A DNA stretch of 63,310 nucleotides, the filler included, from Folioceros fuciformis (taxonomy: Eukaryota): the NCBI GenBank assembly GCA_049999805.1. It is 22 parts of 22 records of this genome, joined end to end, with 100 filler letters (N's around TTAATTAATTAA, not from the genome) between each part and the next. Parts side by side here need not be neighbours in the genome. Positions count along the whole stretch, not along the records: positions 21,151 to 26,526 come from JBNGIO010002812.1; 21 more parts are not named here. The stretch is one strand, 5' to 3'. The notes beneath the pieces are model-generated. The model saw only the letters and a program-made list of their open reading frames with translations. It was not told the origin of the DNA and did not search any database. Numbering within the stretch: the first letter of the stretch is position 1; each line of letters starts with the position of its first letter. Positions 3,262 through 57,779 of this stretch are shown here, piece by piece. Position numbers and translations under genes: made by a program.

Positions 3262-3273
3262 TGGTATCAGAGC
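3262..3273 (+). promoter_or_regulatory. tRNA-iMet primer-binding site
   Basis: TGGTATCAGAGC, 12 nt after the LTR-B end. Confidence 0.75.
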
Positions 3274-4810
3274 CCTAGGCTCTAGGACCATCTCCATGGT
3301 CTCCAGGCATTATGTTTAGATCATGGAGTAGTTCATACATTTAGATGTGTGAATGATAGTTTAGTCAAAAAGCAAACGCTAGAAACAATTCTTGAATGGG
3401 ATCTAAAGGGGTATAAGCAAATGGCATTTAAATGAGAAAGTAGAGGAGAAGGAGCCCTAAACGCTTCTTTTCCCTCCACCGCTTTCTCTACAAGCCATCC
3501 TTTGCAAGTCTCCTCTTCTACACTAGATTCCCAATTCACAAATGGCAAGGAATCATCGCCGCTCTCAAGCTTCATTAAGACAAAGTGTTGAAGATCGGGA
3601 TCGAACTCGTGGACGCCCACATTGCAGCAGCATTGAAAGGAGGATTGGGCATTCTTACTCACCGAGATCACATCGTCTTCTCGGCGACAACTGGCTGGAT
3701 AATCTCTTCCACACGTTGCAAGAACAAGGATGGACTCCACCGGCAAAATGCCATACTGGCAACATCGAATTGACGTCAAGTCACTCTCGATCTTTCTCTA
3801 ATAGTCAACAGGGAAGAACAAGTGCGCAAACGAGAAGAGATGAAACCGTTGATCTCGTCGTCTCTTCTTCAAGCTTGAGTTCGGCACTTCATTCAAGCTC
3901 TCCACGAATGCGTGGAGGACATCAAACAACCACGTGTCCAGGCAATTCACTTGCAAAAGAACAACCACTTAACTCCGTTGCATGGGGAGAAAGCGATGAG
4001 GAATTGCTGCTAATCTCCCCATCTGTACGTCATTCCAAGCAAAGTTTGAGACGCCAAGCGACTTCCTCACGTCCAAGCGCCTCACACTGTGGCTGTCCCC
4101 CCAAGATTGCCTGTGAATTTGCTCCAAATCAAGAGGAATTGGACTCTGGTGTGTTGGTGCAGGATCAGCACGATGTTGCTTCAATTCCTAACTGCATTTC
4201 AGATGTAAGATCGCCCATCCAGGGCGCACGGATCCATGCAGGAGTCGCCCACAATTGCACATCCAAAGCCGAGATTTGGACGGGCGCGCCGGTGGCTGGA
4301 GCGGATGCTACGCTTGTGCCCGTGGGTGGAGGAAACTTGCCCCCGCGCGCGGGGGAGGAGCCGGGATGCATAACCGCCCCCGTTCGCCAACCGGTACAGC
4401 CAGTATCCAACTTAAGTTGGATATCGGTTTGGGCTGAACCGGTATCCAACTTAAGTTGGAAACCGGAACGGGACGGTGCACCCGTTCGCGTGAACGGTGC
4501 ACCCGTTCTTCGAACGGATGCGACCCCCCCGTAATGTGAACGGTCCCCATGATTATGCTCCCAATTTCTCTACTTATAAGGCTTCTGGTGGTGATTTAAA
4601 AACAGAATTTCCTGGCGATTCTTGTGGAGTTCCTCCTCAACCTCGACGGTTCCTTGCTATGCGATGCGTGCCACCTAAGCACGATTTCCAATCAAACACC
4701 TCCAAGTTGANNNNNNNNNNNNNNNNNNNNNNNNNNNNNNNNNNNNNNNNNNNNTTAATTAATTAANNNNNNNNNNNNNNNNNNNNNNNNNNNNNNNNNN
4801 NNNNNNNNNN

Positions 4811-7754: not shown

Positions 7755-8378
7755 CTAGGCAAGACGGGATCGAAGTTGTCGAAACTTGCTGGTGTGGGTA
7801 GCCACACTGTCACCCTCTCGCATTTTCAAGGTATAGAATTCATGTTTCACTGTGCACTTAGTCATCATAGTCCGGACAGCATAAGTATTATTGAGCTGAC
7901 TCCAAATCTGATGTGCCTTGGTAAGGTATTCCACGTCAAGAATCAGCACTTCGTCAAGGCCTGTAATCAAGATGGCAACAACAATTTCGTTCATTGTGTT
8001 CCATTTGTCTACATCAGCCTGTGTAACTTGAGTGCCTCCACTTGTGGTAGTGGTTCCAGCAGCAGGAAGCACAGGCTCCACATATGTGCCGTCAACAACC
8101 GTCCACACGCCTCTTGCACGTAATGTAGTCTGCATTCAAACTTTCCATACTTTGAATTTAGTTCCATTGAACCTGTCAAGGCCTCTGAGGTCTGTTGTGA
8201 AGAATGGAGTAGAGGAAGACATGCTGACTACAAATTGTGGCTGTACAGGAGGAAGAGGTGGAGGTGTCGGGGGAATAGGGGCCAGATTAGGTGGTGCACT
8301 GAAAGGATGCACAGATTCTCGTCGACGACGGAGATGAGGTGATAGAGGAAAATTTAAAAAATGGTCTCTCGTAGACAT
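7755..8378 (-). pseudogene. Ty1/Copia gag (UBN2-type) N-terminal part with a Pro-rich leader
   Basis: LDRFNGTKFKVWKV*MQTTLRARGVWTVVDG...FYTLKMREGDSVATH; one in-frame stop. Confidence 0.85.
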
Positions 8379-8845
8379 ACATTAGGGAATTCACTACAAA
8401 ACAATTAGGGACAATTAGATCTGAAAAGACATTTTTTTTTTAGGGTTTCAGCAAAAAAAGTCTAACTTAAACTACTGCCTTCTTTTGTAGGGCACGTTTG
8501 GATTCAGGTGAAGCGGTTAGTAACCGCCAATGAAAATGAATTAGCAGAAGAAAGGGGCCTGAAAACCACGAAAATCAACAGACATCTGAATGCAAAGTGC
8601 CTACACTAGAAAAGGGTAGCAAATGTCAGTTCAATTTGATCGCTCCTCGTCAAAGAAGCAAAGGGCAATGTTCAAAATCTCAAATTGTCTACAAAATTGA
8701 CTAATTTCAAATGAAAATTTAGAGATTAATTTCTGAATTTTAAAANNNNNNNNNNNNNNNNNNNNNNNNNNNNNNNNNNNNNNNNNNNNTTAATTAATTA
8801 ANNNNNNNNNNNNNNNNNNNNNNNNNNNNNNNNNNNNNNNNNNNN

Positions 8846-18100: not shown

Positions 18101-18665
18101 TATCCTGAAGCTTCCTGCGCTATTCTTCATGAATATAAGCATAGGCAGGAGAGCCAAATACTCGAAGGTGAAGCAAACTAGGTTTGAGTTTCCAGATCAT
18201 CTCAAAAGGAGCCCGATCGGGAACTGCCGACGTGAGTAGCCGATTGAGAATATAGGTGGCAGTGACGATTGCCTCTGCCCAGTAAGCTTTACTGAGCCCT
18301 GACTAGGCCAACATACTCCGAGTCATGCTGAGGAGTGTCTGATTGCGTTGTTCTGCTACCCCGTTTTGTTGGTGGGTATATGGAACACTAAGCTGGCGGA
18401 TAACACCCTGAGCTGCAAGATACTCATAAAAAACGGTATTCACAAACTCTGTGCCATTATCATATCTTAAGCAGCGAAGGTGAGTCCCAGTCTGCCTTTG
18501 TATCATCGTAAGCCACTCTTGGAATAGCAAGAAAGTGTCTGATTTTCGCTTGAGTGGGTATGTCCAGGAATACCAACTAAAATCGTCGGTAAGTGTGAGG
18601 TAGTAAAGAGAACCTCCCAAGGACTGAACATGAATCTTCCCAGAGATGTCTGTATATACAAGGTC
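15123..18665 (-). mobile_element. Ty1/Copia element 3' part: integrase, RT, RNase H, PPT (15343-15352) and 3' LTR starting at 15342 (left end approximate)
   Basis: TDDFSWYSW, QQNGVAE, SLYVD, GYADADWA, SSTEAEY and HARTKHIEI motifs. AAGGGGGTG|TGTTAG PPT/LTR junction. Confidence 0.9.
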
Positions 18666-19260
18666 TGATGAGAATAGGGTGTTAATACATTAGGTTTCGT
18701 TTGGTGAATGCATTCATAGCTACTATAAGTCTAGGTGCCCGCTCATTTGGGTTGCGTCCTTTATGAAAGGGTGTGTCTATTCACCCTACCTAGCTTAAGT
18801 TCAGTTATTTGTCTATGCTGTATATAATTATTGTTTAATCAATGTAATAATGTAATTGTTTTATAGCAATTGGTCTACACCAATTTCCATATTTTCTCAT
18901 GGTATCAGAGCAAGGTTTAGGGGTAGATTACACTTGTGATAATGCACATTAAAATCTGCACATTCTGATGTGCAGGACAATGTATTTTGTTTATATTTTT
19001 TATTGTTGTTTTCTTTTAAAGAAACTATTTTAAAACATACTTCAAGAAATAGGTTTATAGCTTTCTTGATTTTATATTTAGAAGATTTGCACTTCTAGTA
19101 GGTTGTTCTAGTGTATCCATTGTCAGATTGCACTCTAGCAATATGGCACTAGGCACGCTAGAACAACTGCCAGAATTGGCAAATATTTAATTATAGAATC
19201 ATTCACAAAGTTACAAATGTTTCTTGAAAAATAACAAAATACAAAAGCTTGGCCAAATGA

Positions 19261-19968
19261 ATGGCCAATTTAGTGGACGGGCAGAAATGGCGGCCACGCC
19301 CTGCTGAGCGCATCCAACAGAGGAATGCCCACAGAGTACAACGAATTCAAGAGGGCAGGCTGACGTTTGCAGAATCACTTCACCATCAAACCCTGGATTG
19401 GATTCTTCAAACACAAGACCAGCTTGAACAATCCCGGCTTGTGAGAGATTCCTTCAATAATTTGCTTGAGGCTATCTTCCCACAACAGCGCCATTTGTTG
19501 CTTCCTCCACCACCCAGGAATCAAATTAATCTTCCACCCATTGTAAACGGTAACCCTAGGGGTTTCCTGACAACACACACATCACCACATGTTAGTGTGT
19601 CACAATTAAATGCAAGAATAGAAACACTTCAACAGCATGTTGACGAGTGTTTCCAGAGCATTCGTCATAAGATAGCTGAAGTCAGTGTTGACTTGCAAGA
19701 TTTGAAGGAACGTATAGGACATTTGGACTTCAAGTTGCTTACCTTGCTTAACCCCGTTTTGCTAACACATCCTGCACTCAGAGGTGTTGCTTGCAAACGT
19801 GCTAACAAGAATTATAAGCAACACACTTTTGACGCTCCAAATTCTTGTCCTTCATGCTCTGTTTATGCATTTAACAGATGGGAGATTAGACATCAAAGGA
19901 TAGAAAATAGATTAGCAAATCAACAGGCCAATTTACCTCAAGTTGGTAGATTTGCTCACCCCTTGTAG
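19261..19968 (+). CDS. Extra 235-aa ORF upstream of Copia gag (predicted coiled coil plus CxxC), function unknown
   Basis: Intact ATG-to-TAG ORF, also intact in the second copy (12 aa differences). Heptad-like IETLQQHVD...LQDLKERIGHLD and CPSC. Confidence 0.75.
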   Translation: MANLVDGQKWRPRPAERIQQRNAHRVQRIQEGRLTFAESLHHQTLDWILQTQDQLEQSRLVRDSFNNLLEAIFPQQRHLLLPPPPRNQINLPPIVNGNPRGFLTTHTSPHVSVSQLNARIETLQQHVDECFQSIRHKIAEVSVDLQDLKERIGHLDFKLLTLLNPVLLTHPALRGVACKRANKNYKQHTFDAPNSCPSCSVYAFNRWEIRHQRIENRLANQQANLPQVGRFAHPL

Positions 19969-20121: not shown

Positions 20122-21050
20122 ATGGCAGACACCACTACTGTAGTTGGTGATATTTTTAAGGAGAAAGATAGATTTGGGGGGACTGACTATGACATCTGGG
20201 TCATTCGTATGAAAGGAGCTTTACAAAGTAAGAAGCTATGGAAGATAGCAACAGGAAATGAATCACTCCCAACACCTACTGCATCTTCTGAATCTTCTCC
20301 TTCTTCTGCTGAAAAAAAGATACCAAGAAGCTCGGTATACAAAGGATGAAGCTGCAATGCACCTGTTGAGAAGTGGACTAACCTCTGACATGCTGCGACA
20401 GACTTCTGGCTGCAATACATCTTTTGAGATATGGACCAGATTACATGAGCTGTACGCAGGTGTTAATACCACAAGTCAGATGATAGCCCTTCGCAACATT
20501 TAAAATTGCAAAATGAGAGAAGGGGAGACAGTTGAAAAACATGTTGGGCATTTTAGATCACTTGTTTCTAAGTTAGAAAGTGCTTCACAGGAGGCTCTAT
20601 TTGATGAGCTGCTTACCTTGTATTTCATGATGTCTCTCCCTGACTCATGGTCACACTTTGTGACACCTTACAATGCTTCTCAGCTACAGGCTTCAAAGAT
20701 AGCTAAGGCTGCAGGTGTCACAATACCACAGACAACATTTTTTGAGTTAGTGGGAGCTCTTCTTCAGGAAGAAGCTACAAGAGGACAAAACAGGCGTGCT
20801 GGCAAGCAGCAGGATCTTTACACCACAAATAAAAACAAGGGCGCGAGGCCCAACTTCAAAGGTAAACAGAATACCTTTCAAGGTGCTGGTGCCTCACGGC
20901 GAGGGACAACACAGAAGAAACCCAAGAAGTCTGGAAAATGCCACTGGTGCTAGATTCTAAGACATTGGGAAAATGAATGTCGAAAGAAGCAGGCCGGAGT
21001 ACCTCGCAAGGAGGGCAACTCTACTTCTGAGACACATGTTGTGGTGAAAA
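20122..21050 (+). pseudogene. Copia gag with a frameshift and stops
   Basis: An extra A at ~20318 relative to the 54755 copy, and stops at ~20501 and ~20951. CCHC knuckle CHWC..GH....C. Confidence 0.9.
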
Positions 21051-21150: not shown

Positions 21151-23471
21151 GAGTGTGTACTGCTTCAACTCCATTCTGCAATGACTCAACTTGATCTTGT
21201 ATCACGTCGAGGAGAGGTTAGGAAAAAAGATTGATTAATCTTTTTTATAATAAAATAATTTCATCCTTTTGTGTGAAACCCAGTATGAGAATTTGATAAC
21301 TTTTTACCAGGAATTGCAATTGAAACAAGCTATGATAGAGGAGAACCAAGTGAAAACGTCTGGAGACATGGCTTCTGAGATGGTTAACCATGTAACAAAA
21401 TTGTCACACCATATGAAACAGTTAGAAAATGTATTGGATAATGATAGTAATATGATGGGACAAGCTAGCAAGTTTTTTCCAACAGCAGCAAGGTGTGCAT
21501 ATAACTATCATGAAGAAAAGAAGGAGGAACCTGAGATTGAGAACTCCGAGAATCTATTTATCTCTTCATTCCCAAAAGATGTATACATGAATGATGTACA
21601 TGCAGCGGCTGAAATTCAAAGGAATCAAATTGTTGGGTTCATGAAAAACTATGGGGTTTATGGGCAGGACTCTTTAGGCATAGAGAGTCAGTTTAGACCT
21701 TTGGATAGGAATAGCTCTAATTCAAATAGCTTTGGCCATGAAGTACATGTACCTTGGTCCAAAGACAAAGGTACATTGGCTTCACCATCCAAATGGAAGC
21801 CATGCTACATGCAAAATGGCCCGCAAAATTTACATGCAAGGCGCAAGGATTGGGGCCATTGGAAGAGATGGGTAGCTTGGAAATGGAGATGGGCTGCTGC
21901 TGCAGCTAGAGCAGATCAACTAGTGAAACAGTTGTCAAGTTGGAATGTGTTGAAGAAACACCTACAAACAGAAAGTGAACAATACAATCTTAGAATGAGA
22001 AAGCAACATTCTAAACTATCAGACAAACCTTATCATGCTCAAAACATTGAAAGGGAGCAAAACTTGGTAAAAATAGTGGAGTCTGCATGGAACACTTTTG
22101 CTAAGGATGCCAAGATTGATCCCGACTCTAATGTGTTGAAATCCACCTCCAATAAGTTATTAGCTTCCTTGCCTTGGTGGATTCGTAGAGTTGGTGATAG
22201 GAAAAGGATGGAACGTTGTTTTCTCCATTGGCGGCGACTTACTCGCAAGAGAATGAGAGAAAAGAAAAATTTGTCCATCAAAAATGGATGTACCAAAATG
22301 GTCAAAGTAGAGCCTACTTATAACGATCCTAAGGATCCTTATGTTCCATATTATGTGAAGGTTGGTAATGCTGAAGCTTTAGTTGCATTGAAGCAAATGA
22401 CAAAACCCTACCAAGTGCTCAAGTTTTATCAAAAGGGTGGACCTCCGAACCAGCTGCACTATGGAAAGCTTCCTAATATGCATATCACTTCTAGAATGGG
22501 AAAGGATTCAGAGCTACTCTATGGACCGAGTAGGGTGGCAAGAAGTGATATCGTATCAATGCATGGCCTTTGTCCCACATTTACATCTAGAGCTTTGCGA
22601 ATGCTTCAGGTTAGCAGAGAGTTCCACAGTAACTGACAATACTCGTTGAATAGTTTCCACATGAGTCGTGTTATGATAATCATTCCTAATTGCTCGCAAA
22701 CCCATTTGCAGACATCTTTGCAACAAGAGCTTGAAAAATTTGAAAGCATGCTGCAAAATGAAATCAAGGCCCTTCAAAATCATGTAGCGATACAGATATC
22801 TTTCAACAAAATGACCACATGTCTCAATAAGTTTATGGTCACATATCTTTTCTCTTGCATGCTTCTATCACATGATTTGAGTTCCTTTTGTTGTCTTGGT
22901 GCAGATAAGAATGGAGGAAGCTATGAGCAGTTATACTGGTGGCAAAAATGAGTGGCATGTATTCCGGGGTAGTATAGATAGGAGGGGTTGTATTAAAAAT
23001 TATTTAAACTCTCTTTGGCATGTAAGCAATATTTTAGATTTAGCATTAAACAAAGCTAAGAAGCAACTGATGAACAGGGGGAAACGAGTAGATCAATTAA
23101 GCTTAAGGGCATCTTTTCCTTCAGCTTTTGTTTCACCTTGCCAGAATGGTTGGAAGAGAAAGGTTGGGGCCAAGAGTTGCGTGGCCCAATTTTCCAAAAC
23201 CTCTGGGCTTAGGACAGAGCCTATCTCGAGTTGCGTATGTTGTGCAGAACACCAACCCAACAATGTTTGTCTATGGAATAAGAGTAGGATCACAAAAGAT
23301 CGTGATTTTGTTGGATCGCGCTATGCTGCACTACTGAAATCTGAATTATCTCAAACTCATGATAAACAAGATGACCCATTGATTGAGGTTGATAATTTTG
23401 GGGATGTACTTCCTAAAAGGGCACCTTCCGCTGCCTTATATAAAAGAAAACCTTTCTGGAAATTTCATTGA
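21151..23471 (+). CDS. Host gene of unknown function, 5'-truncated; exons 21151-21216, 21311-22609, 22712-22783, 22905-23471 (~667 aa)
   Basis: Three phase-0 GT-AG introns join four open frames without stops. Coiled-coil-like and Trp/Arg-rich segments; no transposon motifs seen. Confidence 0.75.
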
Positions 23472-25366
23472 ACCTATTACCATGCAGTGTAAGCATTGCA
23501 TTTGGATTAGTCATAAAACCATGACTACATGCCTTAACGAATAGAATTCTTGATTACAATTGATATGACTGACCACAAGGGGTGTTGCAGAGCTGGATAT
23601 GGATATGGAGGAGTCATTATTGTGGTCAGTATTAGCTCTATTCCTATGGTTAAGACATGCTTTTCATTCTTTTAGTCACCTATCTTCATTTTATAGATGA
23701 TAATCAAATTTTTGTATTTTTATATAAGTTAAAAGTTATTAATATTAAATTATAAGTTTTATTAGTTTAGTAAATCTCATACCACTGTGCTCTCCATTGA
23801 TAAGCATTTATGTGATGAGAATGTAATATTATCAAAAAATAATTTTCTTCTCAACTAAGATTGGTCATTCTTAATCCCTCCCTTGAGCTTAGAAGTAGCA
23901 TTTGGCAACTTGTCTGCTTGTGGGATTAGATGTCTTGTTGCTGCTCTCAACTCCTTATGTTTATAAAGTTACTTAAAAATAATAAGCAATTTTCATTTTG
24001 AAATATTTCATACTAACTCCTTGACTTGTGAGCGTAAATGTTTTGTTCCCAATCCCAATAATAATGCATATGTTAAACCATGCGTCGAAATGTAGTAAAG
24101 AAAGTAAGCCAAAATGACGATTAAAAGGAAAGTGATGACACCTCAACATAAGAGCATTAGAAACTCATGGTGATTAGTCTGCAAGATAACTTGAAAACAT
24201 GACCTAATTTGCATTGAGTACATCGTACTTGAGAACTTAGTCATTGGTTTGCAATACTCCTTGAAGTAATTCGACGGATCAAAAAAGCCTAGCCTTTGTT
24301 GCTTGTTACCAATATGATAAGATTGAAGCCTCCTGTAGGTCCTTGTCAGATCAAGCACGATCCTTGGTGGTCAACAGTAAATTCAAAGCTTCCTTATGCC
24401 CATCTAGTTCTAACAAAGCCTAGCCAGCCCTTGAAATACATGCTCTTGAGGTGTAGGTTATCTAACCCAAAGGCACGCTCTGAGTCTACCAATGCTTTCT
24501 CATACTTCTACAGCACAAGCCATACCTCAGCCCTATTTAAAAACCTAGAAGAACCTCATTGTTCATCCTCAAAAACTCATTGGAGGAAGCCACTTCCATA
24601 GCTTCTTCATCTTGATGGCTGCTGAAGGCAGCTGTGGTACTTCTCGAAGGTATAGTGGAGGCATGATCCTTGCCCGACTCTCCTTTGGAAGGGGAGGCAT
24701 GCAACAAAGAAGTTAGGAAGTTTTTGTTTTTGGTTTGGCTGTTTTTCCCATTAGATGGAGAAGAGATCAAATTCTTGTGCTCTTTGATTGCTTGCTGAGT
24801 ACTCTAGGTGTAGAAGGTGACCAACTTCTTCCACTCACCCTATCTGAGCAATCCGCCTAGGGAAAAGTGGTAGCTCATGACTGCAAACCCGCTTAGCGGT
24901 GCTGGTACTATGATGTTGTCGGGTCAATGTGACTTGATTGTTATTTATTCGACTTATAGATTGGAAAATTCTTTTATAGAGGAACCCAAGAAGTGAGACT
25001 AAGGCCTCAATGATATCGTAGGTCTTAGAGACCTGGTAGTTTCCCCTAACTACACATAGCCCAACATTTCACACTCCAAATCACCATAGCGCCAAGTAAA
25101 GCTCGAGCGTCATATAAATGATGACCAAGGAACGCTCTGACTAGGGGTTAACACAAAACTAGTACATGAAAATCTGCAAACACTTTACAATTCAGCTGGC
25201 ACATAATGGAATCCTCATGGCCGGGAAGCATCGAGTGAAGAGAGCTTGGCATTGTTGGATGGGGCCTAAGGGTCGGTATACAGCGTGAAGGTCCAGACGT
25301 TGGTGGTGACGGTGGCGTCGGTGTCATCTACGTAGGAGCGGATGAAACGCTGGGTAGCCACTCCCC

Positions 25367-26526
25367 TGACAAACCTGAAGGGTCCGATGCCGACCACAAT
25401 CGACATCTCCCTGCACATACGCAACGCAACGAGTGATTCCAAGTTGAATTTGATAGTTGAAGCGCAGTTGAAGAGCAGCACGATAGAGTAGCATAGTTAG
25501 TTAAGTATAAACGGTACGAGATTTGAAGCGTTAAGTCGTTACCTATCTGCCGACCTAACCACCACGAGGTCAACAGGCACCAAGGACGTGTCTGTCAGAG
25601 TCTGCATACACAAGAGACTGCTGGCAGAGCGCTAATGTACAATCGATTCTAATCTGATGCGATTCCCTACTATTTGTCTTGGTATCAGAGCAGCACGTGC
25701 AGATGCTGAAGCGCACGGGATCAGGGCGCTAATGGAGGCGGAGATGCGACAGCAATCGGGTGTTTTTCTTGCTCTTGCGGGAGTTGGTTTGAATGGAGCC
25801 CTACATCGATTGTCTGAGTCACAATCTACAATTCAGACGAAGAGAGCCCAGAAGGAACCAATCCAGTCGCAACCTGCAGACCATCAACTTCGGTGTCACC
25901 AATCAAAACAGGGAGGTTGCACATTTTGAGGGTTCAGGTGCGACAAGCAAGAAATATACCCAACTGCCATCTCTTTCTCCGCGTCCAGTCTTGTGCCAGC
26001 ATTGCAGAGTCTGTGGGCATTCACCACCTGTTCAGGTCAGGCACGGCAGACGTCATTCAAGATCTTTTGTCCAAAATCAACACAAGGGTCCACAATACTC
26101 AAAAGAGCACAAAGCGAAACACAAGAGAGAAAATATTGTTGTGAGCAAACTTCAGGTGTTAATTCACTCTGTGTCTAAGATTGCAGCACAGCTGATGAGT
26201 TTAGATACTCACCTTCAAGCACTCGATACAAAGTTCCTCTTGATCCTTAAATCACACCTACTTGCAAACAAATTAGCATTGTCAGCACTTTCTGTCCCAC
26301 CTATAGGTCAGATTTATCAGCAACCCACAAAATGTCTGGAGTGCATTGTTCACCGACACGGGCAGCAGACCAAAACAGCTAAGATGGCAGAACAAGTGAA
26401 ATTGGAAATGCTAACAATGTTGGGCACATGAGTTAATGTGGTCACCCAATTTTACCTCCTTCCTTGGGAGTCCCAGGCTTGAAATTCCAGTGAGACTGGA
26501 TGTCGAAGAGACAATTGCAGCCTTAA
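25367..26526 (+). mobile_element. 5' end of an LTR element (probably Copia): LTR (~25367-25679), PBS 25680-25691 and extra ORF
   Basis: TGACAAA...TTTGTC(T) imperfect termini, then TGGTATCAGAGC. The following ORF resembles the 19261 ORF. LTR start is uncertain. Confidence 0.6.
25793..26431 (+). CDS. Extra 212-aa ORF after the PBS, a distant homologue of the 19261/53893 ORF
   Basis: LDTHLQALDTKFLLILKSHLLANKLAL..YQQ..CLECIV aligns with LKERIGHLDFKLLTLLKPVLLTNPAL..YKQ..CPSCSV. Confidence 0.65.
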   Translation: MEPYIDCLSHNLQFRRREPRRNQSSRNLQTINFGVTNQNREVAHFEGSGATSKKYTQLPSLSPRPVLCQHCRVCGHSPPVQVRHGRRHSRSFVQNQHKGPQYSKEHKAKHKRENIVVSKLQVLIHSVSKIAAQLMSLDTHLQALDTKFLLILKSHLLANKLALSALSVPPIGQIYQQPTKCLECIVHRHGQQTKTAKMAEQVKLEMLTMLGT

Positions 26527-43401: not shown

Positions 43402-46400
43402 TGTTGGAGAAAACTAGGTTTAAGCACAGCCTGATACCCGTTACCGAATCAGGACAGTTTCATAAACTCACTAGTTAAACACAGCTTAGTGGTTCGAACA
43501 GTTAAGTAGGTTACTCAAGTTACTAATTGATCAGTCGTCGTTATAACTAAATACACTTTGTATTTAAATCGTATCATTAATGCTCGAATCATCAATTCCA
43601 AGGGATTCTTGTCCTGCTACATGGTATCAGAGCCCCAGGCTCGTCCCCTCATGGCTTCGCCGCTGCTTCCCGTCATTGGCGCTGCACACTTCACAAGGAT
43701 GGGTCAGCAACAATTGAAGAATCCAGCGGACCAGAGATCCTAATAAGGAAAACATAGCAAGGCGATGCACCTCCGTGACTTTCACTTCAATACACCGTGC
43801 TCCCACTCCTGAAGAGAGATCTTTCATCAACATAGCAGAGAAGCAAATCCACGACGAGCGACTCCGCCGCCGGTGGACAACGCCAACTACCAGCACACCT
43901 ATCAGCATTCCAGCCACGGCCGCCCCGATCAAGCCCATCTCTCACTCACACGGATGCACGTACACTGCTTCCTCCCAAGCCAGCGTACCTACCACACCTA
44001 AGTACTTGAGAATTCAATTGGACTACATAGAGTCACAACTCGGCCCTGCATATCGCAATCAATCAAATTCCCTTCTACATACAAATGTAGATCACGCACT
44101 CACTCCTCACCTTTTTTGCTAGTCCTAATTCGACGCCCCGCAGCCTTTTATGCCCAAATTTGATCCGCTCTCCCTTCATACCACAAAGCCCCCTACAAAG
44201 AAACTTGCAATTAAATCAGCCATGGCCTCTTATGTCCCTAATCCCACTTCTACGGTGATTAACACCACCAAAGTAGAATTTAGAGACTGTGATCGCTTCA
44301 ACGGAAGCGATTACGATATCTGGCAAATGAGAATCACAGCCCTGTTAGAAGAACATGATCTAATGTCAATCACATACGGCACTTTGCCACGGCCCTCGCT
44401 CACCTCTACCACACCAGCTACCCTTGACCAGATAGCTGCATGGGACAAGAAAGACAAGAGGGCTCGCAACATCTTGATATCTGCGATTGACAAAACAATG
44501 CTACAACACACCCAAGGTCAGACGACCTCACATGATGTATGGAAAGCTTTTAATGACATGTTCCAGGCACAGAGTTCAATGTCTCTAATCAATGCCACAA
44601 GACAATTCTATTCACTGAGGATGAAGGACAGTGAGAGCGTCGAGCAACACGTAAACATCTTGCAGTCCCTGCGAGTGAAGCTCTCTAGCAGCGGCACCGT
44701 CATCACCAAACTTCAAGCAGTAGGCGCAAACGCACCACCAGCCTACACCTTTTCAGACGTTATTTCAGCATTGCTCGAGAAAGAATCCAGCAGAATCGGC
44801 ACCTCATGCAATAATGTTGGGGTAAGCCACGCCCTCTTCACTTCCAGAGGTCGAGGAAATAGGCGTGGTGAAGGACGAGGAGGTTTCCCCAAGCGAAGAG
44901 GCCCACCTTCTCCAAGCTTCTCGGGCTTCCCAAGTCGACAATTTTCACAAAACAGATCATTTGACAGAAGATCAGCCAAACGAGCATGTAACTGGTGCAA
45001 AAATCTTGGTCACTACAAAAGTGAATGCCGAAAGAAGCAGGCAGGCAAGCCACGTAGAGAAGCTCCCAGAAACGAGTCTCACCTTACCACAACTACCAAG
45101 TCGTCGTCAGCCAGTTCCATCTTAGCAGTCTGCCTCACCCTTACCAGAACAGACACATGTCGTTGGTTCTTAGACTCCGGAGCCACCACACATATATGTA
45201 GCTGTCAAGACATGTTTACCTCCTACCACCCGGTCCTCTCCGACCAACGCGTCCTCTTAGGAGATGATAGTGCACTACCCATTCAAGGTTCAGGAGAAGT
45301 CCAACTGCGTCTTTCTACTGGAGAGCTCCTCACCATCAACAAAGTCCTCCACGTACTTGCAATGACCAAGAACTTGCTGGTAGTCCGTAAGTTAGCCACA
45401 AAACATGACCTCACCATCACGTTCCAAGGAAACCACTGCACCATCTGTCACAGCAAAGACCCTGAGAAAATAGCCCTGGCTCACGGACTTCCCTTCAATG
45501 ATCTTTACCTCTTGAACATCCAATCTACATCACTCTTGGTAGATAGCAGTCCACCAACATCCTCAAACAAGTCCTTGTTACTGCACTGCCGTGCAAGCCA
45601 TATGAACTCTAGATACCTCAACATGCTTGCAGACCCCACCATGTATAAGGATCTTGTCAAGCTCAAAGTTCACAAGGACTTCTTCTGCAAGATATGTCAG
45701 TATACCAAGTTAAACCAATCACCTTTCAAAGATCCTTCTCCTACCCGTGCCAGACTAGTGCTTAAGACAATCCACTCCGATATATGTGGACCCATGAGCA
45801 CCGACTCCTTTGGAGGCCACAGCTATTTCATTACGTTCCTGGATGAATGGAGCAGATATTGCCATGTCTACTTCTTGAAGCGAAAGGACGAGGCCCTTTC
45901 ATGTTTCCAAGACTTTCTTCTCACTGCTGAGTGGCAAACAGGATTTCAAGTAACCACCCTGCGAACAGACAACAGGGGTGAGTACATCAGCAATGCCTTC
46001 CAAAGATTCTGCCGCTCTAAGGGCATTCAACAAAAGAACACGGTACCTTATACTCCCTCATAGAACCCTTTCGCTGAACGACTGAATCGTTCCTTGTTGG
46101 AAATCTTGAGGTCCCTCCTCAAACTCGCAGGCTTAACAAAAGCATACTAGGCAGAAGCTGTGTTCACTTCCACTTACCAGAAAAACAGGCTTCCAACTAA
46201 GGAACTCCCCTGCACTACTCCATTCGAGAGGTGGAGTGGCCACAAACCTAGGGTATCCCACCTCCATATTTTCGGTAGTCCTACCTTTGCCCATATTGCT
46301 GCAAAAACCCGAAGGAAGTGGGATGATACAGGTCGAAAGATGTTGTTCATAGGATACTTGGACCAAGTCAAAGACTACCGGCTCTTTGATCCCCACTCTT

Positions 46401-53298: not shown

Positions 53299-55730
53299 TG
53301 ATGAGAATAGGGTGTTAATACATTAGGTTTCGTTTGGTGAATGCGTTCATAGCTACTATAAGTCTAGGTGCCCGTTCATTTGGGTTACATCCTTTATGAA
53401 GGGTGTGTCTATTCACCCTACCTAGCTTAAGTTCAGTTATTTGTCTATGCTGTACATAATTATTGTTTAATCAATATAATAATGTAATTTTTTTATAGCA
53501 ATTGGTCTACACCAATTTCCATATTTTCTCATGGTATCAAAGCAAGGTTTAGGTGTAGATTACACTTGTGATAATGCACATTAAAATCTCCACATTCTGA
53601 TGTGCAGGACAATGTATTTTGTTTACATGTTTTATTGTTGTTTTCTTTTAAAGAAACTATTTTAAAACATACTTCAAGAAATAGGTTTATAGCTTTCTTG
53701 ATTTTATATTTAGAAGATTTGCACTTCTAGTAGGTTGTTCTAGTGTATCCATTGTCAAATTGCACTCTAGCAATCTGGCACTAGGCACGCTAGAACAATT
53801 GCCAGAATTGGCAAATATTTAATTATAGAATCATTCACAAAGTTACAAATGTTTCTCGAAAAATAACAAAGTACAAAAGCTTGGCCAAATGAATGGCCAA
53901 TTTGGTGGACGGGCAGCAACGGCGGCCACGCCTTGCTGAGCGCATCCAACAGAGGAATGCCCACAGAGGACAACGAATTCTAGAGGGCAGGCTGACTTTT
54001 GCAGAATCACTTCACCATCAAACCCTGGATTGGATTCTTCAAACACAAGACCAGCCTGAACAATCCCGGCTTGTGAGAGATTCCTTCAACAATCTACTTG
54101 AGGCTATCTTCCCACAACAGCGCCATTTGTTGCTTCCTCCACTACCCAGGAATCAAATTAATCTTCCACCTATTGTAAACGGTAACCCTAGGGGTTTCCT
54201 GACAACACACACATCACCACATGTTAGTGTGTCACAATTAATTGCAAGAATAGAAACACTTCAACAGCATGTTGACGAGCGTTTCCAGAGCATTCGTCAC
54301 AAGATAGCTGAAGTCAGTGTTGACTTGCAAGATTTGAAGGAACGTATAGGACATTTGGACTTCAAGTTGCTTACCTTGCTTAAGCCCGTTTTGCTAACAA
54401 ATCCTGCACTCAGAGGTGTTGCTTGCAAACGTGCTAACAAGAATTATAAGCAACACACTTTTGACGCTCCAAATTCCTGTCCTTCATGCTCTGTTTATGC
54501 ACTTAACAGATGGGAGATTAGACATCAAAGGATAGAAAATAGATTAGCAAATCAACAAGCCAATTTACCTCAAGTTGGTAGATTTGCTCACCCCTTGTAG
54601 ATAGGGCTGCTCCTGCAGTTTATCTAAGATGCAACAGTAGCATCTTACCTCTTCCCAGTCTTTCTCTTCAGTTTGTACCTTGTCCGGATAGGCTACAAAG
54701 CTGCATACAACCATTTTTCCTAACAATTAGGATAGAATTACTACATTCTAATAAATGGCAGACACCACTACTGTAGTTGGTGATATTTTTAAGGAGAAAG
54801 ATAGATTTGGGGGGACTGACTATGACATCTGGGTCATGTGTATGAAAGGAGCCTTACAAAGTAAGAAGCTATGGAAGATAGCAACAGGAAATGAATCACT
54901 TCCAACACCTACTACATCTTCTGAATCTTCTCCTTCTTCTGCTGAAAAAAGATACCAAGAAGCTTGGTATACAAAGGATGAAGCTGCAATGCACCTGTTG
55001 AGAAGTGGACTAACCTCTGACATGCTGCGACAGACTTCTGGCTGCAATACATCTTTTGAGATATGGACCAGATTACATGAGCTGTACGCAAGTGTTAATA
55101 CCACAAGTCAGATGACAGCCCTTCGCAACATTCAAAATTGCAAAATGAGAGAAGGGGAGACAGTTGAAAAACATGTTGGGCATTTTAGATCACTTGTTTC
55201 TAAGTTAGAAAGTGCTTCATAGGAGGCTCTATCTGATGAGCTGCTTACCTTATATTTCATGATGTCTCTCCCTGACTCATGGTCACACTTTGTGACATCT
55301 TACAATGCTTCTCAGCTACAGGCTTCAAAGATAGCTAAGGTTGCAGGTGTCACAATACCACAGACAACATTTTCTGAGTTAGTGGGAGCTCTTCTTCAGG
55401 AAGAAGCTACAAGAGGACAAAACAGGCGTGCTAGCAAGCAGCAGGCTCTTTACACCATAAATAAAAACAAGGGCGCGAGGCCCAACTTCAAAGGTAAACA
55501 GAATACCTTTCAAGGTGCTGGTGCCTCACGGAGAGGGACAGCACAGAAGAAACCCAAGAAGTCTGGAAAATGCCACTGGTGCCAGATTCCAGGACATTGG
55601 GAAAATGAATGTCGAAAGAAGCAGGCCGGAGTACCTCGTAAGGAGGGCAACTCTACTTCTGAGACACATGTTGTGGTGAAAAAGCAAGGCTCACCTTCTG
55701 CCCTTACAGTAGGGATTAGGAAGTTTGCAT
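53299..55730 (+). mobile_element. Second copy of the extra-ORF Copia family: LTR 53299-53531, PBS 53532-53543, extra ORF and gag
   Basis: Collinear and near-identical to 18666-21050. Confidence 0.93.
53893..54600 (+). CDS. Extra 235-aa ORF upstream of gag (copy 2)
   Basis: Intact, and 223/235 aa identical to 19261-19968. Confidence 0.75.
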   Translation: MANLVDGQQRRPRLAERIQQRNAHRGQRILEGRLTFAESLHHQTLDWILQTQDQPEQSRLVRDSFNNLLEAIFPQQRHLLLPPLPRNQINLPPIVNGNPRGFLTTHTSPHVSVSQLIARIETLQQHVDERFQSIRHKIAEVSVDLQDLKERIGHLDFKLLTLLKPVLLTNPALRGVACKRANKNYKQHTFDAPNSCPSCSVYALNRWEIRHQRIENRLANQQANLPQVGRFAHPL

Positions 55731-55830: not shown

Positions 55831-57779
55831 AGTAGTCTAGGGCTAGGGGCTGTGCTGGCTCAACAGGATGAAGCAGGTTGTGAGCGTGTGGTTGCTTACG
55901 CCTCGCGTAGCAACAATCGAGCTGAAGCCAACTATAGCAGCTACGAGGGTGAATGCCTCGCTGCTGTGTGGGCAGTGTGCCACTTCAGACCATATTTATA
56001 TGGTCAGAAGTTCACACTCGTGACAGACCATCAACCACTCAAGTGGCTGATGACCAACACCAAGCTCAGTGGCAAACTCGCACGTTGGGCCATGATCCTT
56101 CAAGATTACGAATTCCAGGTTGAACATCGGCCAGGAGTGAAGCACCAGAATGCTGATACCTTGTCACGAAATCCTGACAGCAGTTGTGTGGATACCACTG
56201 GAGCTCGCCAAGATGAAGAGTACAGCACAATGCTTGCCGTATCGGCTCTGGTGGCCATGACTTGCTTGGGACAGGTGCCTGTAGATGCAGCTCAGCAATC
56301 CTCCAAGGATATTTGGGAGGATCCAGCTACCCTTCAGTATGTGCAGACAGGTAGAGAGGACCCGACTTGGACCGCGGCCACAAGGGAACGAGTTCACCAA
56401 CGGGCTACCAAGTATTGTTGGCGGGACGGACATCTCATCCGTCAACAGGCTCAAGGAGTGGAGCGATTGGTACCCCCACAGCAGATCCTGCTGCCCTCAT
56501 CAAAAGGGTGCATGATGACATGGGTCATTTTGGGGTCAAACGCACCTACAGCCTGTTGACTCCCTATTTCTACTGGAATCGAATGCATGAACAAGTGAAG
56601 GAACGAGTAGCCTGTTGCGAGCAATGCGACCGTGTCAAGGCTTCCTTCACCATGCAGCACCCAGAGCTGCACCCTTTGCCCATCATGGGTTTATTCTTCA
56701 GATGGTCATGCGACCTGATGGGTGAGCTCCCGCAGTCTCCACGAGGCAACCTGTATGCGATGATCATGATGGAACACTTCAGCAAGTGGGTGGAGGTAGT
56801 GGCCCTGCCAGACAAGACCTCTAGGAGTACCTCACAAGCCTTCCTACAATGTGTGCTCAGTAGGTTTGGTGGCTGCGCAGAGTGTCTCACAGATCAGGGT
56901 TCTGAGTTTCGAGGAGAATTCCAGGATCTAATGGATGCAGCCCTTATTGACCACAGGAGAACTAGCCGGGACCACCCGCAGGCTGATGGCTTAGCCGAGC
57001 GCATGGTCCAGACTATGAAGAAGGGGCTTTGCAAGCTGTGTCTCCGAGAACCCAAAACAGATTGGGATCTCATGCTTCCATATATTGCAATGGGTTACCG
57101 CATGAGCAAGCATGCTGCCCTTGCCCATTTTTCCCCTTACTTCCTCTTGTTTGGCAGAGAACCAATTCCACCTAGTTCTATAGCCAAACAAATGCTAGAA
57201 GTTGTCAAGCTGGATGATGCAGCTACATGGGCACGTGTGATAGGTAACAGGGCAGCCTTGTTCAAACAGGCCATGCCCATGGCAATGGCTAACTTGCACA
57301 TTGCCCAGCATAGGGATACCCTTCATTATGCACACACTAGGGGAGGCAGTTTTAGGCCCAAGCTCAGGAAGTTCCAGGTAGGAGACTTTGTTTACCTGCA
57401 GAGGCAGACCTCAGATGCCCTGGACACTTCTAGCAGTCGGCATGTGTTGCGGATTCAGGAGGTCAAGCCTAATGGCATCCTGGTATTGCAAGGCTCAGAT
57501 GGTCGGATCACCACTGACCACACCAAGAATTGCGCACCTTGCCACTTGCCCAATCTTGATCCTTCTATTGTCACAGCAGATTGGATTCCACCAGCGGACT
57601 ATCCTTGCCAGGTTTGTCAACGCACTGATGATGCTAACCTCATCTTACTTTGTGATGGCTGCAATGGGGGTTTCCACCTTTTCTGCTTACAGCCACCACT
57701 TACCCATGTACCGGAGCAACTTTGGTATTGTCCCAAGTGCCAACCGGACACAGCAGGTGTGACCAACCTAGGAGTGTAG
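55831..57779 (+). mobile_element. Ty3/Gypsy RNase H and integrase with a C-terminal PHD finger; one frameshift near 56480
   Basis: VAYASR, TDHQPLKWL, ADTLSR, HHCC, TDQGSEF and GLAER motifs; C4HC3 CQVC..LLCDGC..FHLFCL..WYCPKC. G-rich PPT-like tract at 57821. Confidence 0.95.

Follow-up and report, generated by a model that had tools for sequence, protein, structure and literature searches.

The DNA analysed here, in the following called the window, is a stretch of 63,310 nt from Folioceros fuciformis (assembly GCA_049999805.1) and is made up of 22 short contigs with spacers (44 N, TTAATTAATTAA, 44 N) between them. The contig at 21151-26526 (JBNGIO010002812.1) carries an ORF of 212 aa, which lies behind the LTR and the PBS of a retrotransposon, here named the 212 element. 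The following features were assigned to the element:

~25473-25679, plus strand: 5' LTR of ~207 bp, placed by read-contig depth and break points; it may in fact begin with the TG at 25469
25657-25929, plus strand: uORF of 90 codons, beginning in the LTR end, spanning the PBS and using another frame than the 212-aa ORF
25680-25691, plus strand: PBS TGGTATCAGAGC, an exact match directly abutting the LTR
25692-25792, plus strand: leader of 101 nt, from the PBS to the ATG of the 212-aa ORF
25793-26431, plus strand: 212-aa ORF (protein P0003), basic with a pI of 10.2; an in-frame TGA stands right before the ATG
26432-26526, plus strand: 95 nt 3' of the stop codon of the 212-aa ORF, after which the contig ends; no gag within

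Read-derived contigs of four public runs (X1-X4) were aligned onto 24000-26526; X4 gave no coverage of the ORF. Among the six runs listed, two contain the stretch; all come from one study and one sample, and no RNA run is among those listed. In run X3, C>T (98) and G>A (95) make up nearly all differences. X1 and X2, which derive from that sample too, do not show this, and the X3 library looks bisulfite-converted. Between ~25445 and 25699, the word depth in the read contigs climbs from ~7-10 in the flank to 55-185, and contigs of other copies diverge 'before' 25473 and 'behind' 25679. The rise in depth and the two divergence points thereby define an LTR of ~207 bp that reaches exactly up to the PBS. 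The internal part of the element including the ORF has a word depth of ~32-40, which is 4-5 times that of the flank; therefore, the 212-aa ORF belongs to a repeated element.

The sequence TGGTATCAGAGC, which we take to be the usual tRNA-iMet PBS of Ty1/copia elements, was found exactly at 25680, 3262, 18900, and 43622 and with one mismatch at 53532. At ≤1 mismatch, this makes 5 occurrences in the window vs. 0.32 expected. One feature of Ty1/copia elements, an LTR followed immediately by a tRNA-iMet PBS, is present in the 212 element; the other, a Copia-type gag and a pol with integrase ahead of reverse transcriptase, would lie beyond the contig end at 26526. The distance of 101 nt between PBS and ATG agrees with the preliminary description, which had placed the ORF ~100 nt after a Met PBS.

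The preliminary description had also considered that the next fragment of the window might be part of the same element. This proposal found no support: the two fragments are separate contigs, no terminal overlaps were found when all 22 contigs of the window were compared, and no further copy of the 207-bp LTR exists within the window, so that nothing connects the Copia 3' end next door with the 212 element. In the absence of overlapping contig ends, adjacency of fragments is no evidence of linkage. Two Logan contigs per run continue beyond 26526.

Several other features of the window were recorded. Upstream of the 212 element, in DNA of single-copy depth, there is an open frame of 460 aa (21254-22636, plus strand) with no Pfam family and coding-like codon usage (score 0.126; for scoring see below). 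Just outside the LTR, a Dirigent-like fragment was detected on the minus strand (25266-25496; E 8e-6, 26.0 bits at a cut-off of 29.1). A contig ~89% alike to this fragment has a word depth of 1622 in run X4, which we guess to be an RNA run. Together with a contig of 131 kb in X1, this would point to a plant genome. Retrotransposon genes form the majority of those window ORFs that have a family match. An ORF of 419 aa (56520-57779, plus strand) represents a gypsy-type integrase: besides Integrase_H2C2 and an rve core, it has at its C-terminus a PHD finger (E 2e-12), which takes the place of the chromovirus chromodomain.

Open frame and coding signal

One explanation of the 212-aa ORF, which we regard as unlikely, is that the frame is perhaps a non-functional open stretch, and that its similarity to a second ORF, one that precedes a gag (described below), arose by chance between unrelated leader ORFs, both encoding amphipathic Leu-rich helices, with a coincidental CxxC. 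The length of the frame argues against this explanation, as a frame as long as 212 codons appeared in 5 of 5000 runs when the 847-nt region was simulated with a Markov-1 model. For comparison, the length of the 235-aa ORF introduced below was reached in 1 of 5000 such simulations. The explanation draws support from the distribution of stop codons in the first part of the ORF, since all three frames are open at 25818-26142. From 26142 to 26431, solely the frame of the 212-aa ORF is open, while the other two have 10 and 4 stops.

Codon usage was measured by a log-odds score, for which 11 retrotransposon genes from the window served as the training set. The 212-aa ORF scored 0.028, a value reached by 8.9% of the off-frame windows, while 7.2% of the in-frame windows were lower; its codon usage is ambiguous. 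Scored by halves, the C-terminal half was again ambiguous (0.056), and the N-terminal half looks non-coding (0.005). Both the ambiguous total and the low value of the N-terminal half are points in favour of chance. The 235-aa ORF scored 0.081, which is coding-like and was reached by none of 1400 off-frame windows.

Counted from the LTR start, five ATGs precede the 212-aa ORF. The uORF listed above extends over the first 45 codons of the ORF and has a codon score of 0.075. Five ATGs upstream of gag are also present in a Copia element of the window that has no additional ORF in this position, so that the upstream ATGs are no argument against use of the frame. In contigs from other copies, the ORF stretch is 95-99% alike (15 of the 30 contigs in X1). 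One of the three differences listed for LTR and ORF, A>G at 25852, lies inside the ORF and is synonymous by codon reading.

The 235-aa ORF family and its similarity to the 212-aa ORF

The ORF used for comparison occurs twice in the window, in both cases between an iMet PBS and gag. Its copies, and the stretch of the 212-aa ORF which aligns with them, are located as follows:

19261-19968, plus strand: 235-aa ORF, copy 1 (protein P0001), with an LTR at ~18664-18899, a PBS at 18900-18911, and a Copia gag from 20122
53893-54600, plus strand: 235-aa ORF, copy 2 (protein P0002), with a PBS at 53532 and gag from ~54755
26138-26353, plus strand: aligned stretch, aa 116-187 of P0003 against aa 127-202 of the 235-aa ORF

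The two copies of the 235-aa ORF are 97% identical at the DNA level. In both, the distance from the iMet PBS to the ORF is 350 nt, and the Copia gag (DUF4219, Retrotran_gag_2) begins 153 nt 3' of the ORF. The gag of copy 1 (20122-20953, plus strand) shows a frame change between 20349 and 20504, and that of copy 2 (54755-55582, plus strand) aligns in one piece. Two other Copia 5' ends of the window (43622-44150; 7755-8745) have no long ORF before gag; their leaders measure 528 nt (43622-44150) and ~470 nt (7755-8745, where gag is on the minus strand). The pre-gag ORF is therefore family-specific and not a general feature of the Copia elements. At a third iMet PBS (3262; region 3262-4534, plus strand), an ORF of 330 aa follows at 3542-4534. 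It was rejected as a relative of the pre-gag ORFs (Smith-Waterman score 41, no Pfam match), and with codon scores equal in all three frames it is probably non-coding.

The 212-aa and the 235-aa ORF have several properties in common. Both follow an iMet PBS, start in the identical context tgaATGg, are of similar size, and encode basic proteins with a heptad helix and a P-x2-C-x2-C-x-V...RH motif. They differ in that the N-terminal halves are unrelated, the LTRs and the DNA cannot be aligned, the leader has a length of 350 nt in one case and 101 nt in the other, and gag is visible only behind the 235-aa ORF. No N-terminal homology was found between the two ORFs in any frame, frameshifted comparisons included. 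That the 212 element has a different LTR and no visible DNA similarity to the other family, as described before, was borne out, since the DNA shared by the elements is just 20 nt comprising the LTR end and the PBS. Over the aligned codons, nucleotide identity is ~44%.

An alignment by eye had previously suggested the pattern L..L......LD.K.L..LK..LL.N..AL, followed by Y.Q and CxxC.V, as common to the C-terminal halves. We found all three parts, with a one-residue gap in the first and an exact fit in the copy at 53893-54600. In the copy at 19261-19968, N and H replace the K and the N of the pattern, while the rest stands.

This similarity was quantified by Smith-Waterman alignment (BLOSUM62, gap penalties 11/1). 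P0003 scored 77 against P0002, with 22 of 71 aligned pairs identical, and 64 against P0001. Plain shuffles gave a mean of 34 (sd 5.5), and none of 2000 reached 77 or 64. When residues were shuffled within windows of 20 aa, the observed score was reached in 0 of 2000 cases for P0002 and in 3 of 2000 for P0001. Chance resemblance between two coiled coils calls for a stricter null model, in which helix residues were exchanged only between equivalent heptad positions, and the tail was shuffled. Even so, none of 3000 heptad-preserving shuffles reached the score for either copy of the 235-aa ORF, which argues against chance; the earlier claim of C-terminal conservation at the protein level thus survived comparison with shuffled coiled-coil sequences. 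The signal resides mainly in the helix, which alone gave z values of 5.7-7.2 (0 of 3000 register-preserving shuffles). The Cys tail alone (P-x2-C-x2-C-x-V) gave z values of 2.5-2.8, and 54 and 84 of 3000 shuffles did as well, as would suit a coincidental CxxC.

Comparison with real ORFs also speaks against a chance match. When P0003 was aligned with all 323 stop-to-stop ORFs (≥60 aa) of the window, the copies of the 235-aa ORF were the top non-self matches (77 and 64), whereas the best of the 320 other ORFs scored 44. The ranking is reciprocal, P0003 being the best match outside the family for each 235-aa copy and the next one scoring 47. Moreover, few tests were made, as the comparison was defined by position, i.e., by an ORF after an iMet PBS. 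Other programs gave values that are more in line with chance: composition-adjusted BLASTP yielded an E of 0.035 for P0003 vs. P0002 and no alignment for P0003 vs. P0001, a tblastn search of the entire window at E≤10 did not include it, and hhalign returned P 0.011 with a probability of 3.8%. Taken at the level of the sequences, the similarity is statistically real but modest, and it is confined to ~75 residues.

The preliminary description had gone further and spoken of an old, selected protein family. Of this, what we can point to is that both frames are open at ~44% nucleotide identity. Between the two copies of the 235-aa ORF, 8 codons show synonymous and 12 codons non-synonymous differences, with no clear constraint. 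These counts say little, because the copies probably diverged after insertion. Together with the ambiguous codon usage of the 212-aa ORF, they leave the term 'selected' unsupported.

Predicted protein architecture and search for relatives

Within the 212-aa protein, the following regions were distinguished:

25793-26101, plus strand: N-terminal half, aa 1-103, rich in Arg, His, and Lys, pI 10.8, predicted to be disordered
26102-26287, plus strand: aa 104-165, predicted as one long helix and holding the core of the similarity (AlphaFold2, heptad pattern)
26333-26359, plus strand: C181-x2-C184-x2-H187-x-H189, of which C181, C184, V186, R188, and H189 are identical in the 235-aa ORF

AlphaFold2 models based on a three-sequence alignment had a low overall confidence (mean pLDDT 51 and 54), with just the helix at ~69-84; in P0003, the latter values refer to aa 111-160. 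A single helix of ~55 residues was modelled for both proteins (aa 104-158 in P0003, aa 113-169 in P0001), and in both models it is followed by a loop and then by a C-terminal helix. The residues V116-I151 of P0003 form an unbroken 3-4 hydrophobic heptad pattern in register with V127-L162 of the 235-aa ORF. According to these models, a long heptad helix, a Cys loop, and a C-terminal helix would be the architecture common to both proteins, which are also both basic (pI 10.0-10.4).

In the loop, both proteins have the motif P-x2-C-x2-C-x-V...RH, and MAFFT gave Y175, Q177, P178, C181, C184, V186, R188, H189, and Q191 as invariant columns. A classical C2H2 zinc finger has the spacing C-x2-4-C-x12-H-x3-5-H. 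P0003 with C-x2-C-x2-H-x-H and no Pfam family at E≤1 does not correspond to it, nor does the 235-aa ORF, which has C-x2-C-x11-H and no second His in range. In a profile search of PDB sequences, C2H2 fingers matched the Cys tail at a sub-threshold E of 0.15-0.78. The metal site which had been considered possible gained no support from this: apart from CxxC, it comprises a single aligned His, and no family was matched.

The helix of the 235-aa ORF (aa 113-161; 19597-19743, plus strand) matched the central coiled coil of influenza HA2 in 17 chains at a sub-threshold E of 0.08-1. Since they all belong to one family, we read these sequence matches as heptad resemblance. An Env-like or class I fusion protein was rejected: the proteins are basic, have 212-235 aa, and show just these sub-threshold HA2 matches on the 235-aa helix. 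Neither protein contains an uncharged hydrophobic stretch of membrane-spanning length.

A wider family, as the preliminary description had envisaged, did not emerge, and the failure to find a third member favours chance similarity. No Pfam family matched P0003 at E≤1, and the Pfam matches of the 235-aa ORF were far below the cut-offs. Word-based homologue searches with P0003 and P0001 against 5.8 billion clusters gave nothing at E≤0.01. A profile search of 1.84 billion representative proteins yielded two matches, both long repeat proteins. They were judged spurious, as they cover only positions 29-74 of the profile, BLASTP gave an E of at least 0.3 per repeat, and P0003 was unmatched. The Atlas, queried with P0003, contained no usable match; PDB sequences gave sub-threshold matches only, and metagenome and viral contigs gave pattern matches and no relative. 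This lack of relatives is weak evidence, because predicted proteomes are unlikely to include the retrotransposon leader ORFs of a plant that has been sampled little.

Interpretation and comparison with known systems

On balance, we favour the view that the 212-aa ORF belongs, as a diverged member, to a small and lineage-specific family of pre-gag accessory ORFs, and that what it has in common with the 235-aa ORF is probably a true, once-functional accessory domain. Two frames that share ancestry and are both still open at this level of nucleotide identity were counted in favour of a gene. A quite improbable variant is that the homology is true and the frame a relic, i.e., that the 212 element is decayed or non-autonomous (LTR-PBS-ORF) and its accessory gene no longer under selection, with ancestry visible in the C-terminal domain only; it would fit the N-terminal half without coding signature or similarity, the contig stopping before any gag, an LTR depth ~3 times the internal depth, by which many copies are solo or truncated, and the upstream ATGs with the overlapping uORF, but it has against it a frame intact over 212 codons with its ATG right after a stop, the ORF-less Copia with equally many upstream ATGs, and the close likeness of the other copies over the ORF, which fits recent amplification.

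As a diverged family member, the 212-aa protein would be among the proteins that some LTR retrotransposons of the Ty1/copia type in this genome encode between PBS and gag. The conserved unit would be the C-terminal ~75-100 residues, consisting of a coiled coil of five to seven heptads followed by a P-x2-C-x2-C-x-V...R-H loop, and the basic N-terminal region would be free to vary. If the protein is made, it may associate with itself via the coiled coil, and the basic parts together with the Cys/His cluster may bind nucleic acid or Gag. By analogy to ORF1-type proteins elsewhere, a role in the packaging of the element's own RNA or in particle assembly is conceivable. For translation of a pre-gag frame and gag from one RNA, reinitiation, splicing, and internal entry are candidate routes.

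The model for the proposed self-association and nucleic-acid binding is provided by the ORF1 proteins of non-LTR retrotransposons, which are basic, contain a coiled coil, and are encoded 5' of the enzymatic ORF. The likeness concerns the architecture only: no RRM, CTD, or CCHC knuckle was detected in P0003 (Pfam, E≤1).

Among the LTR retrotransposons of plants, extra ORFs are mostly located between pol and the 3' LTR (PMC7264820). ORFs upstream of gag are described for the Ty3/gypsy lineages Ogre and Tat (PMC2533021, PMC9181549); that of a Medicago Ogre has 1527 bp (PMC2533021). Another study reports that Retrosat2, RIRE3, and RIRE8 carry an upstream ORF0, which evolves fast and is of unknown function, with ~10% similarity between ORF0 proteins where the pol proteins have 60% (PMC3485330). 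By these descriptions, the ORF1 of Ogre/Tat and the ORF0 of Retrosat2, RIRE3, and RIRE8 resemble the 212-aa ORF, a presumed pre-gag ORF, in that they are additional sense ORFs placed after the 5' LTR and before gag. Their carriers differ: Ogre, Tat, and Retrosat2 are Ty3/gypsy elements whose LTRs span several kb and whose ORFs are much larger, while the LTR of the 212 element is ~0.2 kb. A Ty3/gypsy carrier of the Tat lineage was also rejected for the 212 element in view of its iMet PBS and of the gag in the sister family, which is of the Copia type (DUF4219, Retrotran_gag_2). The 212-aa ORF may thus be seen as a positional analogue of the Ogre/Tat/Retrosat2 ORF0/ORF1, set apart by its carrier, a comparison made by description. 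In a full-text literature search, we found no description of an upstream-of-gag ORF in a Ty1/copia element; supplementary files may list some. In kind, the 212-aa ORF belongs with the additional ORFs already known from LTR retrotransposons.

A conserved domain in two Copia families whose DNA cannot be aligned offers a defined protein of ~100 residues for testing the function of upstream ORFs; the present scope is two families, one genome, and moderate statistics. A broader proposal, which we put forward tentatively and would rather doubt than assert, is that a conserved, element-required 'ORF0' encoding a basic coiled-coil protein with CxxC...H is present upstream of gag in several Ty1/copia families of this genome that are otherwise unrelated, as the Copia counterpart of the upstream ORFs of Ogre, Tat, and Retrosat2. 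If this were true, such an 'ORF0' might serve, e.g., in RNA binding and packaging, in particle assembly, or in countering host silencing.
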